Positions 19,262 to 22,932 of a DNA stretch of 64,000 nt are shown one piece after another; the stretch's first letter is position 1, and each line of letters opens with the position of its first letter. The notes beneath the pieces were generated by a model, which ran no database searches, had not been told where the DNA came from, and was given only the letters and a program-made list of their open reading frames with translations. The DNA lies in the NCBI RefSeq assembly GCF_016026235.1, contig NZ_CP065613.1. The stretch is one strand, 5' to 3'. This DNA comes from Escherichia coli. GTDB lineage: Bacteria > Pseudomonadota > Gammaproteobacteria > Enterobacterales > Enterobacteriaceae. The position numbers were made by a program, and so were the translations under genes.

Positions 19262-20314
19262 TTAATGAATTTCTTTTGCCACTACTAGCGCGACACCGCT
19301 TTTACCCTTCATTTGCAGCGCATAGACTCCACCAGCCACTACCACTAATAGTGCGCCCAGCAGATAAATCATTCGGTAGCCAGTATGTGCAACCATCATC
19401 CCCATCACACAGGCTCCCAGCGCCAGGCCTGCATCCATCGCATTGAAGAAGAGGGAGTTTGCGACACCGATTTTATGCGGTTCCACTGAACTGATAATCT
19501 GCGTCTGAAAAACTGGCGTCACGGAACCATACCCGATACCAATCAACGCGCCAGAAACAACCATCATTATGCTTCCCTGGGTGTAGCCGAGAACCACCAG
19601 TCCTACCGTAAAGAACACAAGGCAAGGGTAAACCACATATTTCGGTCCTTTTTTGTCGCAGACATTGCCGGTAAAGGTACGGCAGATCATCAGGAAGATG
19701 GCGTAGCAAAGCAGGAAATTACTGGCCGCCGACATCAGGTTAAGTTCGCGAGCATAAAGCGCCAGAAAAGCAGAAACCCCGGCATACGAAAAGGTCATAA
19801 AAAAGGTGACCATCGCAAATGGCAACGCCGCGCGATCGAACATGGCGGCAAAGCCCATTTTCGGCGTTGAACCATCAGCATGGCTGATAACCGGCGGCAC
19901 TGTCATAATCAGCGACAGAATAATCCCCACCGCTGCCACGCCGGTGCATAGCCAGAAAGCCAGATTAAAGGCTTCCCAGCGCGCCATATTCAGACCAATC
20001 CACGGCCCGACCACCATTGCCAGCCCCATTGCCAAAGAGAAAAAACTGATGCCCTCCCCACGTCGGGAGGCCGGGATCAGCCGCGCGGAAATCGTTCCTT
20101 TTACCGTAGTGATAACCCCGAAGGTAATACCATGAAGCACCCTAATAAAAAGCAGTGATTCTATTGAGTGGCAAAAAGGATACAGCGCAGAGACCACCAA
20201 AAAGGCCAGAGAAGAGAGCACCAGAATAGTTTTATTCGAATATTTACCCACCCATTGCCCGGCAAAGGGTCGAATAACAATCGCCGCAATTAAAAATAAT
20301 GTCACCAGCAGACC
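19262..20314 (-). pseudogene. MFS transporter gene, 3' portion (interrupted by IS4)
   Basis: 347-codon frame with multiple transmembrane segments; the track 'start' is a GTG 9 bp inside the frame. The frame runs straight up to the IS4 end and continues above the IS at 21740. Confidence 0.85.
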
Positions 20315-21739
20315 TAATGCCAGTCAGTTAAGCAACTGACTGGCTCTTTTTCGGGGCTGTGGGGTATTTCCAGGGCCTCTCCTTTACCACTCTCGGGAAG
20401 GCCCTTCCCCTTCTCGTCGGTAATTTCACAAGTTGTCCCATACTTGCAAGATCGCGCATCAGCTCCGGTATACGTCCCGGTGAAGCGCCCTGCAATGTCA
20501 TCAGCATTCTCATCACCATTCCGCATGATTCTGAGAAACTCAGTTGATTCGGCCAGTAACCTTTCAGATGTTCCGCCATTTTAATCATCTGATATCTCAC
20601 CAGATTATAAGCCAGTAAGACACCCCACAGCTCTTGCTCCACAAGCTCCGGCTTTTTACTTCTCAGCGTCAGCCTGCTCAGTTGCATCGTCTGTTTTATC
20701 TCCCTGTATCCCAGTTCGATTTCCCAGCGATGACTGTACAGATCCGCCATTTCTCCTCCGGGGAAGCGCATGGCGTCCGTCATCGACGTCAGCAGATGGC
20801 AGACTTTTCCTTTGCGCGTCACGGTCAGCAGGCGGGCTGTCACTTCATTTCCCAGTCCCGGCCACTTTTTTCGTGCCTGCGGGCTGGTTTTCAGCTTCAC
20901 CAGATGATCGCCTTTACCCAGTTTTCTGAGCTCTTCATATTGCGCTCCCTTTCTGAGAGGTATCATCCAGTGGCGGTGTTCTCCCGCCAGGCTCCAGGCA
21001 TTTAACAGTCCCAGTGAGTAATAACCTTTATCCATTAACGTCAGAGTGTTATCGCCGGTTTGTTCTATAAGTTGCTCAGCAAGCTCATTTTCGCTGTTCT
21101 TCATCGTGCCGAAGGCTGCAGCCGTCAGCAGATGGCTGGTCAGTTCCATCTGGCAGACCATTTTGACCTGCGGGTAGAGCGCCGGGTTCCCGGCATGTGT
21201 CTGGCGGGGAAGGCTGCATCGTTCTCTGGTGTATCCGGTGTGCGCCAGAACACACCATCGATGGCCAGCAGGGTCAGGCCGCACCAGTGCGGATGCGGCG
21301 TGGCGTTATGCCAGAGCTGCGCTGTTTTCGTGAACACGCGGCGGACAGCCTCACTTCCCAGGCGCTGGCGGGCCTGAATAACGGCACTGGGGGCAACGAA
21401 GGGGCGATTGCCCGGCAGCATGATGTCCAGGCGATTCACAATCTGGTGAAGAGGTTCTTTACGCTCAAGCGCCATGCCAACAATACACCAGACCATCATT
21501 TCGAGGGGAAGACGGCGCTTGCGTAGCGTTACAGTACCTGATTCGGCAAGGCAACGAGAGATGAGTTCGGGGTCGAGGTAATCCCCCAGAGAAGTCAGTG
21601 GGTTACGCAGAGAATCGTAACGGGATACCAGATCAAGAGCCTGTCCAATGTGCATAAAAAAATCCGGAAACAAGTGAGCGTTTCCGGATTCTTACACAGC
21701 CACTGGATCGGTCAACTGATCCTTAACTGATCGGCATTA
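20315..21739 (-). mobile_element. IS4 insertion sequence (1425 bp) with 12-bp target duplication CACCAGCAGACC
   Basis: Ends taatgccagtcagttaag... (20315-) and ...cttaactgatcggcatta (-21739). Identical 12-mers caccagcagacc at 20303-20314 and 21740-21751. Carries an IS4-family DDE transposase. Confidence 0.93.
20328..21655 (-). pseudogene. insG: IS4 transposase (InsG-like), split by a frameshift
   Basis: N-terminal ORF 21140..21673 (MHIGQALDLVSRYDSL...[22 protein letters not shown]...) and C-terminal ORF 20328..21284 (...[19 protein letters not shown]...[14 protein letters not shown]...) overlap in different frames. The frame switch maps near the G4 run at 21206-21209. Confidence 0.85.
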
Positions 21740-21889
21740 CACCAGCAGACCAGCTTTATCAGGGGATGCATGGAGACGATCGGAGATATAAATAGGTAAT
21801 AAGGTCAGCAACACATAAAAGACGAAAAAGATAATAAAGCTAATAATGGTGATTGCCCAAAAATCTTTCGTCCATAATTTTTCTTTCAT
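21740..21889 (-). pseudogene. MFS transporter gene, 5' portion (upstream of IS4)
   Basis: MKEKLWTKDFWAITIISFIIFFVFYVLLTLLPIYISDRLHASPDKAGLLV, then a stop supplied by the IS4 terminus. Joins in frame with the 3' portion once one copy of the 12-bp duplication is removed. Confidence 0.8.
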
Positions 21890-22053
21890 ACTAAACGACC
21901 CGTTCAAATGGCGCACAAGGACACCGCTCAGCATCACAGGCTGAACCACTACAGGTGCGTCAAAATGTGATTTACTCGATAGAAATAGAGTATAAATGGA
22001 TGCACTCTATAAGAGAAATTAATCGTTTTAATCATATTAATTAGATATTACTA

Positions 22054-22932
22054 ATGACACTAACCCAAATCCACACCCTGCTCGCCGTACTGGATTATGG
22101 CGGCTTTACCGAAGCCAGTAAGCGCCTGTTTATGACGCAATCCGCCGTAAGCCAGGCCATTGCCACCCTGGAGCAAGAGCTTGGCGTAGAGATCCTGATC
22201 CGCGAGCGGCGAAAAGCACTGCAGCTGACTGACGCCGGCTCACGCATCGCAAGCCATCTGCGGGCGATTACCCGTGAAGTGAACGCTGTGAAAGAAATTG
22301 CCGAGCAGGAAAAACATAACCCGACCAGAACGCTGCGCATCGGCTGCTTTCCCAGCGCCTGCGCGTGTATTTTACCGGGTATTATTCGCTATTTTGAAAC
22401 TTATCATCCGCAGATAAAAATCATTCCTTACGAAGAGAACAGCAGTGAAATTATTGATTCGGTGCAAAACGAAACTATCGATGCCGGTTTTGTCCATTTT
22501 CCGGTAACCGGAATGTATTCCGTCCCGGTATATCAGGATAAATTTACCGTGGTGCTGCCAGATGCTCATCCCCTGGCAAAAAATAACGCTATATCGGTGG
22601 AAGAACTGGTGGGAGAACCGCTCATTATCAGTAAGGGGCGTTATGAATTAAGCATTATGGCGTTATTTAAGGAAAAGAATATTACGCCGGTCATTAAATA
22701 TGAATTTAACCATCCAGATACGGCAATAAGTTTTATTCGCCAGGGATTAGGAATTGCTCTGTTACCGGAGCTGACGCTGAAAGCCGTCGCCGGTGAGTTA
22801 TGCTCTGTCCCGCTGGAGCCGACGTTTTATCGGCAAATTTCATTGCTGGTCAAAGAGGCGCCGGTAGAAGGCAGCCCATTGTTTTTATTGCAAATGTGTA
22901 TGGAAACCCTGGTGGTCAAAGGCATATTGTGA
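22054..22932 (+). CDS. LysR-family transcriptional regulator, divergent from the disrupted MFS gene
   Basis: 292 aa; N-terminal helix-turn-helix MTLTQIHTLLAVLDYGGFTEASKRLFMTQSAVSQAIATLEQELGVEILIR; about 165 bp divergent intergenic region. Confidence 0.88.
   Translation: MTLTQIHTLLAVLDYGGFTEASKRLFMTQSAVSQAIATLEQELGVEILIRERRKALQLTDAGSRIASHLRAITREVNAVKEIAEQEKHNPTRTLRIGCFPSACACILPGIIRYFETYHPQIKIIPYEENSSEIIDSVQNETIDAGFVHFPVTGMYSVPVYQDKFTVVLPDAHPLAKNNAISVEELVGEPLIISKGRYELSIMALFKEKNITPVIKYEFNHPDTAISFIRQGLGIALLPELTLKAVAGELCSVPLEPTFYRQISLLVKEAPVEGSPLFLLQMCMETLVVKGIL

Follow-up and report, generated by a model that had tools for sequence, protein, structure and literature searches.

A LysR regulator and its IS4-broken divergent transporter at the yfaH locus of Escherichia coli: a proposed autoregulated activator of an export-type pump

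What role is left to a LysR regulator when the divergent gene beside it has been broken by an insertion sequence? This question is raised by a locus in a 64,000-nucleotide stretch of Escherichia coli DNA (the window), where an intact regulator gene and an interrupted MFS transporter gene lie between inaA (18531-19181, minus strand) and glpQ (22977-24056, minus strand). The first-pass annotation had described the regulator as orphaned by the loss of the transporter. In the reading preferred here, to which a probability of roughly 0.6 is given, the regulator, a LysR activator that also controls its own gene, switches on an export-type pump at the ancestral yfaH locus, and the pump was recently lost through IS4.

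The regulator gene and the IS4-split transporter gene

The regulator gene (22054-22932, plus strand) encodes a LysR-type transcriptional regulator of 292 aa, intact as first described. Both Pfam domains of the family are present, the winged helix-turn-helix domain HTH_1 (PF00126) at residues 3-62 (70.1 bits, cut-off 26.6) and the LysR_substrate domain (PF03466) at residues 89-268 (123.8 bits). E. coli FDAARGOS_943 has the same protein, WP_000176730.1, at 100% identity. Its top family matches are the Gram-positive types GltC, AlsR and CidR, every one below cut-off, and BenM and CatM are among the nearest solved structures (E about 5e-19). Additionally, residues 226-290 are matched by NF007272, the 68-aa model of K-12 YfaH (E 7.5e-40).

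The disruption of the transporter gene by IS4 is confirmed, and the split falls after codon 50. The 5' fragment (21740-21889, minus strand) holds codons 1-50, with TM1 and the start of TM2, and is closed by a TAA stop at 21737-21739 contributed by the IS4 terminus. The 3' fragment (19262-20314, minus strand) starts at codon 47, which the duplicated bases cause to be read again, continues to codon 396 and the stop, and is without TM1. Both fragments were delimited by reading frame, hydropathy and alignment to the intact gene. The intact reference allele in FDAARGOS_943 (L001 5263-6453) is an uninterrupted gene of 396 codons, and its product contains MFS_1 (PF07690, 199.9 bits), with hydropathy peaks that fit 11-12 helices arranged about a central loop at 183-213 (6+6 layout). 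When IS4 and one duplicate are excised in silico from the window, an open frame of 396 codons is obtained, with 1 amino-acid difference from FDAARGOS_943. The IS4 insertion is the sole lesion in this gene. With IS4 after codon 50, the product would be limited to a one-helix stub and the pump would be lost. The IS4 hit is recent, as the remainder of the transporter gene shows no damage and the regulator no change. It is an ordinary pseudogenisation, or gene decay, restricted to one lineage.

The IS4 copy (20315-21739, minus strand, 1425 bp) has its transposase gene oriented as the MFS gene and is 99.9% identical to 1426-bp IS4 copies. It was assigned by sequence, terminal inverted repeats, DDE transposase and a target duplication of 11-13 bp; terminal inverted repeats and a 12-bp duplication, CACCAGCAGACC, are present as expected, the latter as direct repeats at 20303-20314 and 21740-21751, and the domains Nterm_IS4 and DDE_Tnp_1 are found in the reference transposase. 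In the window the transposase frame is split into two ORFs (20328-21284 and 21140-21673), with one G missing in a G5 run near 21205, and comparison with the reference copies gives a single 1-bp gap. Since the same insertion in GCA_900449985.1 keeps G5 and an intact transposase of 442 aa, the frameshift may be a sequencing error. The contig of that assembly equals the window over 7,044 bp apart from one base. The IS4/MFS junction was absent from complete E. coli genomes (0/5,426) and was found in at least 21 other public contigs, that of GCA_900449985.1 among them.

O island 97, yfaH and the distribution of the pair

The pair is already known under another name, as judged by position and alignment: it is the "O island 97" of O157:H7, which consists of z3494 (MFS) and z3495 (regulator). 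In strain EDL933 the order inaA, MFS, LysR, glpQ and the divergent layout are as in the window, the flanking genes are shared, and the amino-acid identity is 85% for the regulator, with a nearly identical recognition helix, and 99% for the transporter. The core dyad of the control region, ATTAATCGTTTTAAT, is identical, and the deletion primers of PMC10819331 match the window spacer. Unlike the window, O157 has an extra ORF between glpQ and the regulator (356 aa, without a Pfam match), and its z3494 is not broken by IS4. Moreover, the two regulators belong to deeply diverged allele classes (dS about 2), of which the window type was found in about 102 genomes and the O157 type in about 1,120.

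In K-12, the annotated pseudogene yfaH (b2238; 207 bp / 68 aa annotated) also lies between inaA and glpQ and corresponds to the last ~70 codons of the regulator, with ~77 codons alignable. A deletion of about 1.9 kb in K-12 removed the control region together with three quarters of the regulator gene and most of the transporter gene; at the joint, the final ~107 bp of the MFS gene run into the 3' end of the regulator gene. These alignments identify the window regulator as orthologous to Z3495 of O157 and as the complete counterpart of K-12 yfaH. The yfaH remnant has 92.7% nucleotide identity to the O157-type allele versus 76.5% to the window allele, and by this comparison it is derived from the O157-type allele. 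In the literature under yfaH, STM2280/STM2281 and the ECs tags, nothing on function was found; yfaH serves only as a neutral marker site.

Outside E. coli the arrangement is constant. The pair sits between nrdB-yfaE and the glp genes in all 25 of the Enterobacteriaceae species compared, with variable surrounding inaA, glpQ and glpT. In every Enterobacterales locus with enough flank, a LysR ortholog (61-87% identical) stands divergently beside an MFS ortholog (80-97%), and the same divergent layout is seen in three Neobacillus species (MFS 34%, LysR 38-39%). Within E. coli, ~22% of complete genomes keep the pair, ~58% carry the K-12-type deletion relic and ~19.5% are without a match. Because the same slot is occupied in 25 species, the pair is ancestral and not an acquired island. 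On this comparative evidence it is an Enterobacteriaceae locus lost piecemeal in E. coli, neither part of the E. coli core nor a recent acquisition. O island 97 has been regarded as laterally acquired (PMC10819331, 2024); the present comparison indicates, in contrast, an ancestral locus deleted in K-12. The first-pass annotation had foreseen that its view would fall if both genes were conserved core genes with an already assigned substrate. It can be seen that they are conserved across 25 species but do not belong to the core of E. coli, and substrate and inducer are still, as it had noted, not readable from the sequence.

The control region and the proposed regulation

The two start codons are separated by a divergent control region of 164 bp (21890-22053), in agreement with the gap of about 165 bp first noted. 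A generic T-N11-A search over the window was uninformative (3,733 matches versus 3,736 expected), and phylogenetic footprinting was used in its place. A segment of 71 bp (21986-22056) is free of indels in 28 taxa and is proposed to contain the promoter and operator. The spacer outside this segment varies from 83 to 149 nt, and it is there, within the predicted 5' leader, that two Citrobacter species carry 56 inserted bp. At BLAST sensitivity, the operator block is found at a median of one place per E. coli genome.

Several elements can be distinguished in this segment. The dyad ATTAATCGTTTTAAT (ATTAA-N5-TTAAT, 22018-22032) is a candidate LysR binding site; 12 of its 15 positions are invariant or altered in just 1 of the 28 taxa, and it contains a T-N11-A from T22019 to A22031, the kind of box that the first-pass annotation had suggested looking for in this gap. 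A second dyad, ATTAG-N6-CTAAT (22040-22055), overlaps the ATG of the regulator, with arm positions kept in 24-28 of 28 taxa. A conserved half-site (22009-22013) reads ATTAG in 23/28 taxa and ATAAG in the window. For the MFS promoter, conservation predicts a minus-strand -10 hexamer, TATACT (21989-21994), in which T1, A2 and T6 are each kept in 27 of 28 taxa. A simple sigma-70 scan gave two marginal sites only and did not report this hexamer, and for the regulator gene neither a promoter nor a ribosome-binding site could be placed.

An RNA element in the transporter leader, comprising the conserved blocks TGCGTCA...TGTGAT and GGCGCRC, was considered and rejected. It had no Rfam match, no RNAalifold consensus structure and a folding z-score of -0.84, and for a hairpin hiding the ribosome-binding site 55.6% of cells were paired, a value that shuffled sequences also gave. 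These tests leave the blocks unexplained; they might include a one-sided CRP half-site (TGTGA), although this is unsupported.

According to the preferred reading, the regulator would bind the conserved sites of the 71-bp segment beside its own start codon, and binding there would repress its own gene. With a small-molecule inducer bound, it would activate the transporter promoter (-10 TATACT, 21994-21989). Control of the adjacent divergent gene, as proposed in the first-pass annotation, fits the constant divergent pairing and the conserved T-N11-A dyad. In the window lineage the regulator is probably still active on its own operator, and possibly on other targets as reported for Z3495.

The proposed architecture resembles a known one. 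At benA of Acinetobacter, BenM and CatM use three sites at roughly -65, -43 and -25, spaced by about two helical turns, which also serve the autoregulation of the divergent regulator gene. Relative to the predicted MFS transcription start, the candidate sites of the window would lie at ~-65 (ATTAG-N6-CTAAT), ~-43 (ATTAATCGTTTTAAT) and ~-29 (the half-site), with a comparable spacing. The two systems differ in their half-sites (ATAC-N7-GTAT versus ATTAA/ATTAG) and in their targets, a catabolic operon versus a transporter, and in the window, unlike BenM/CatM, it is the middle site that holds the best T-N11-A dyad, all of its sites being candidates read from sequence. Several points count against the pump-activator model. 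The transcription start is placed from the conserved hexamer alone, and relative to it the best T-N11-A dyad is centred near -43 and not near -65, as in textbook cases; that the regulator's promoter and ribosome-binding site were not found also weighs against it, as does the unlinked target reported for Z3495 (below). In E. coli, LysR regulators divergent from 12-helix MFS exporters are represented by PunR-PunC (YdhB-YdhC), YnfL-YnfM and YidZ-MdtL, which share the same module logic; a close sequence relationship of the window pair to these three was not detected.

Regulator targets, direction of transport and fate of the locus

In the only published study of the locus, Z3495 was reported to bind the rcsF promoter (ChIP-seq, ChIP-qPCR and gel-shift) and to raise LEE virulence-gene expression in O157 (PMC10819331). 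Deletion of z3495 lowered ler/LEE transcription, adherence and mouse colonisation, deletion of z3494 was without effect in the virulence assays, and transporter control, binding motif and inducer lay outside its tests (PMC10819331). Given these reports for the ortholog, the term "orphaned" was too strong. Together with the almost identical recognition helix, they favour a regulator that is mainly stand-alone, multi-target or virulence-related, acting on rcsF, Rcs and LEE, so that the adjacency of the transporter would be historical and its loss immaterial. This explanation is possible, yet we consider it unlikely, as the pair and its operator are conserved in at least 25 species, including Kluyvera and Superficieibacter. 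Most of these species are expected to lack the LEE. All 97 ChIP peaks in the published data are of low enrichment (log2 1.2-1.8), and most are in highly expressed genes (rRNA, dnaK/J, ompA, ompC, pflB, ptsH). Their coordinates look K-12-like, and K-12 is without the locus; the regulator's own operator could therefore not be scored. The conserved dyads were not found upstream of K-12 rcsF, and the single operator block per genome, at BLAST sensitivity, also argues against many targets. The published evidence for an action of Z3495 on rcsF looks weak. An unlinked target, which the first-pass annotation had named as a possible refutation, has been reported for O157 (PMC10819331), on evidence of this kind.

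The direction of transport bears on the pump itself. Sequence profiles place both the regulator and the transporter securely in their superfamilies. Among solved structures, the transporter comes closest to the efflux pump NorA (E 2e-13) and to a sugar efflux transporter. In NCBIfam its top hits are to families of exporters (the staphylopine exporter CntE, EmrB, multidrug resistance and sugar efflux); for every subfamily the score stays far short of the curated cut-off. With NorA, a multidrug:H+ antiporter of Staphylococcus aureus, the transporter shares the MFS fold, the alignment of the N-terminal six helices and, in motif C of TM5 (G-x3-GP-x2-GG), the core GP-x-x-G, the sequence being AMVVGPWIGL versus GFILGPGIGG in NorA; the first and last glycines are not kept. 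The relationship is distant (53 bits), motif A in the TM2-TM3 loop is degenerate (GQWVGKYSNK), and the likeness is one of sequence alone. A CDD match to the 'MFS_YfcJ superfamily' was reported for the transporter of the z3494-z3495 locus (PMC10819331), and by their scores YfcJ/YhhS-type proteins are distant relatives only (NF003477, 110 bits versus a cut-off of 374; NF009048, 84 bits versus 364). The transporter is likely of export type (drug/metabolite:H+ antiporter-like), with 12 helices.

A nutrient importer, with the regulator as a substrate-responsive activator of uptake, seems improbable. Many MFS_1 proteins are importers, and weak matches to aromatic acid/H+ symport, galactonate and lactate transporter families were obtained, but the strongest relatives are exporters and the core of the antiporter motif is kept. 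Moreover, no catabolic enzyme gene was found beside the pair in any genus (~30 genomes, two phyla). In the Firmicutes relatives (Desulfosporosinus, Bacillus, Neobacillus) only a universal-stress-protein gene is found downstream, and the operator is not conserved there.

It is very doubtful that the locus is simply dispensable in E. coli and decaying neutrally, with the regulator intact only through the recency of the IS4 hit and without a remaining role. The high share of genomes with the deletion relic or without a match, the independent insertions by which other strains carry IS5 in the MFS gene or either ISVsa5 or IS5 in the LysR gene, and the truncated regulator variants common in databases are consistent with such decay. 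The window regulator also has identical counterparts in strains whose pump is intact, which implies that there has been no time for selection. However, dN/dS of 0.03-0.13 in the regulator and transporter genes points to strong purifying selection, in comparisons across species as well as of the two allele classes within E. coli, and a phenotype was reported for the regulator deletion in O157 (PMC10819331). Hardly probable is a rewiring in which the pump normally exports the regulator's inducer, as in classic exporter feedback loops, so that the inducer accumulates after pump loss, the regulator is held in its activating form and secondary targets, such as the rcsF/Rcs pathway reported for Z3495, are constitutively on; if it were true, the recurrent transporter hits, by IS4 in the window and IS5 in other strains, would be adaptive regulatory mutations and not neutral decay.

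The practical value of these findings lies mostly in annotation. Three labels are joined to one locus: K-12 yfaH, O157 OI-97 z3494/z3495, and the anonymous "MFS transporter / LysR family regulator" annotations, which occur in Salmonella, Citrobacter, Klebsiella and Kluyvera. A concrete operator and promoter model is also supplied for a proposed EHEC virulence regulator, whose published ChIP-seq was blind to what would be its most likely primary target.

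Structure of the interrupted gene pair

The anatomy given in the first-pass annotation, an intact LysR-family regulator divergent from an IS4-disrupted MFS transporter across about 165 bp between inaA and glpQ, was confirmed. The regulator gene (22054-22932, + strand) encodes a 292-aa product, in which a domain search identified an N-terminal LysR-type helix-turn-helix and a C-terminal LysR substrate-binding domain. This product is 100% identical to WP_000176730.1 of E. coli FDAARGOS_943, annotated as "LysR family transcriptional regulator", whose neighbour on the opposite strand is an unbroken MFS transporter gene of 396 codons. 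In the window, a gap of 164 bp separates the start codons, the pair is bordered by inaA and glpQ, and a 1425-bp IS4 copy at 20315-21739, flanked by the 12-bp direct duplication CACCAGCAGACC, cuts the transporter gene in two. The 5' piece (21740-21889, - strand) encodes 50 residues, comprising TM1 and the beginning of TM2 by hydropathy, before a TAA stop supplied by the IS4 end; the 3' piece lies at 19262-20314 (- strand). Deleting IS4 and one duplicate in silico gave an open frame with 1 amino-acid difference from FDAARGOS_943, indicating that IS4 is the sole lesion and that it is recent. Collinearity with FDAARGOS_943 extends over window positions 21740-64000, at 99.93% identity.

The IS4/transporter junction was found in 0 of 5,426 complete E. 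coli genomes. At least 21 further public contigs encode the shortened 347-aa transporter product, so the insertion is common to a lineage. One of these contigs, from GCA_900449985.1, differs from the window by a single base in 7,044 bp, near 21205 in the IS4 transposase gene (window 21197-21210), where the window has G4 and the contig G5. The transposase of that contig is intact (442 aa), while the frame in the window is split by the one absent G, which may reflect a sequencing error in the homopolymer or a true inactivating mutation. A second mobile element of the window is the 323-aa ORF at 29949-30920, an ISNCY-family transposase annotated between glpC and yfaU in FDAARGOS_943. Additionally, the nrdA-nrdB spacer (16869-17036) holds an 87-bp unit repeated 1.9 times at 96% match, which looks like REP/BIME-type palindromic units and yields spurious ORFs on both strands.

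Distribution, names and ancestry of the locus

Among the 5,426 complete genomes, the pair is mostly kept in 1,211 (1,222 by operator probe; ~22%), a partial match only, chiefly the K-12-type relic, is present in ~3,158 (58%), and 1,057 (19.5%) show no match. Further insertions were observed in strains with the window-type allele: IS5 inside the transporter gene of TUM9754 and its relatives, ISVsa5 and IS5 inside the regulator genes of ET5 and 23CRST025, respectively, and IS1 inside glpQ of ET729. The earlier statement that only the regulator is intact is therefore true of the window but, given these independent insertions, describes one decay state of several across strains.

The locus already carries three labels, yfaH in K-12, OI-97 in O157:H7, and anonymous generic annotations ("MFS transporter", "LysR family transcriptional regulator") in other genomes. 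In the inaA-glpQ interval of K-12, yfaH (b2238) is annotated as a pseudogene, and NF007272, an NCBIfam model derived from the K-12 YfaH of 68 aa, matches regulator residues 226-290 (E 7.5e-40). In the alignment, K-12 has lost ~1.9 kb, so that the final ~107 bp of the transporter gene are joined directly to the final ~210-260 bp of the regulator gene. A literature search by locus tag led to PMC10819331 (2024), which describes OI-97 as 2006 bp comprising the LysR-type regulator gene z3495 and z3494, whose product is assigned to the "MFS_YfcJ superfamily" of transporters; the deletion primers of that paper match the aligned O157 spacer. The OI-97 transporter is 99% and its regulator 85% identical to those of the window. 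In O157:H7 PA20 (contig L008, 5265-6335), an extra 356-aa ORF without a Pfam match, presumably Z3496, separates the regulator gene from glpQ; neither the window nor K-12 has it.

The locus is a recombination mosaic. Between window and O157, most of the transporter gene shows 97-100% nucleotide identity, with an 88-95% patch at ~19600-20000. Identity is 70-83% from 21752 to 22932 (L008 3620-4801), a stretch spanning the first ~150 bp of the transporter gene, the spacer, and the regulator gene to its end. For the regulator, the two E. coli allele classes differ by a dS of ~2, which is saturated and as deep as that between Escherichia and Salmonella. The O157 regulator allele groups with other Escherichia species (dS 0.2-0.8), and the window-type allele is the rarer, with ~102 genomes against ~1,120 of the O157 type. 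One of the two classes was probably brought in from an unsampled lineage by recombination. The K-12 remnant, at 92.7% nucleotide identity to the O157-type allele and 76.5% to the window-type allele, derives from the former.

Transporter orthologs 80-97% identical were found in the Escherichia cryptic clades, E. whittamii, Salmonella enterica subspecies, Citrobacter, Klebsiella (oxytoca group), Kluyvera, Superficieibacter, Phytobacter, Pluralibacter, Pseudocitrobacter, and Leminorella, and a divergent regulator ortholog (61-87% identical) adjoins the transporter in all loci with sufficient flanking sequence. The next-closest transporter relatives belong to Firmicutes, one Desulfosporosinus and one Bacillus at 55-57% identity; in three Neobacillus species the transporter is 34% and its divergent LysR partner 38-39% identical. 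In 25 of 25 Enterobacteriaceae species the pair has nrdB-yfaE on one side and the glp genes on the other, a placement that stays constant while inaA, glpQ, and glpT vary in presence around it. Both genes show dN/dS of 0.03-0.13, indicating strong purifying selection. OI-97 has been read as laterally acquired (PMC10819331); given the conserved slot, the constant pairing, and purifying selection, this reading is not supported. Judged by these comparisons, the locus is ancestral and has been lost from K-12 and most E. coli.

The control region

Since a generic T-N11-A search carries no information, the spacer was aligned across 28 taxa instead. The 71 bp adjoining the regulator start (21986-22056) show zero insertions or deletions in 28 of 28 taxa, and the remainder, towards the transporter, ranges in length from 83 to 149 nt. 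The T-N11-A box suggested as a check in the first-pass annotation has a near-invariant candidate in this alignment, ATTAATCGTTTTAAT at 22018-22032, a dyad ATTAA-N5-TTAAT with 12 of 15 positions invariant or altered in one taxon. A second candidate dyad, ATTAG-N6-CTAAT (22040-22055), overlaps the regulator ATG, and a candidate ATTAG half-site lies at 22009-22013 (ATAAG in the window). The predicted transporter -10 hexamer (21989-21994, - strand) reads TATACT/TATAAT, and its critical positions T1, A2, and T6 are each kept in 27 of 28 taxa. Given this hexamer, transcription would start at ~21982 and the three candidate sites would be centred at ~-65, ~-43, and ~-29, a spacing known from BenM-type promoters. 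Two Citrobacter species carry a 56-bp insertion in the predicted transporter leader; its position just beyond the fixed segment is consistent with the promoter model. Because each of the three predicted sites covers the regulator start codon or closely precedes it, autoregulation would be almost unavoidable. Neither a promoter nor a ribosome-binding site was found for the regulator itself.

In the variable part (21905-21975), the blocks GGCGCRC and TGCGTCA-N3-TGTGAT are conserved; no RNA structure and no full CRP site accounts for them. Two further exact ATTAA-N5-TTAAT matches occur in the window, at 56702-56716 and 57921-57935, in elaD and a frameshifted ORF by collinearity with FDAARGOS_943. 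One of them, ATTAATAGTTTTAAT, differs from the operator dyad at one of 15 positions; both are AT-rich and probably due to chance.

Transport direction, reported targets and proposed mechanism

The transporter matches Pfam MFS_1 (200 bits), and among solved structures it is closest to the NorA efflux pump and to a sugar efflux transporter. Against NCBIfam it scores highest with two generic models of MFS subfamilies, with the model of the staphylopine exporter CntE, and with those for multidrug, EmrB, and sugar efflux, in each case far under the cut-off. The GP-x-x-G core of the NorA TM5 antiporter motif aligns in the window transporter, although the motif is incomplete, and none of the genomes examined has a catabolic gene linked to the pair. 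These exporter relatives, the motif core, and the lack of linked catabolic genes make export likely, favoured over import by about 4 to 1.

The first-pass annotation also regarded the regulator as orphaned by the loss of the transporter. In PMC10819331, z3495 deletion reduces ler/LEE transcript levels, adherence to HeLa cells (3.4-fold), and bacterial counts in the mouse colon, none of which follows z3494 deletion; an rcsF promoter fragment is shifted by MBP-Z3495 and enriched 3.5-fold in ChIP-qPCR. Regulation of z3494, a binding motif, and an inducer lie outside the scope of that paper. Its Supplementary Table S4 contains 97 Z3495 ChIP-seq peaks, all low (log2 enrichment 1.2-1.8), mostly within highly expressed genes (rRNA, dnaK/J, ompA, ompC, pflB, ptsH). 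Peak coordinates fit K-12 and not EDL933 (e.g. glpQ at 2.35 Mb); if the mapping used a K-12-like reference, where the locus is absent, the regulator's own spacer could not be scored. The conserved dyads were not found upstream of K-12 rcsF. The unlinked rcsF target is thus reported, though not strong, and even so orphan status should not be asserted. The earlier interpretation is partly supported. The comparisons establish anatomy, orthology, synteny, purifying selection, and operator conservation; regulator binding, promoter position, transport direction, and the role of an inducer are inferred.

The most likely mechanism, at a probability of roughly 0.6, is a self-repressing LysR-type activator of a divergent export-type MFS pump. 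The regulator would repress its own gene and, when bound to an inducer, would turn on the pump gene; in the window lineage, the recent IS4 insertion has destroyed the pump. A system of this kind is well known and the locus itself was previously described. What is new here are the corrections to its description and a testable operator model.
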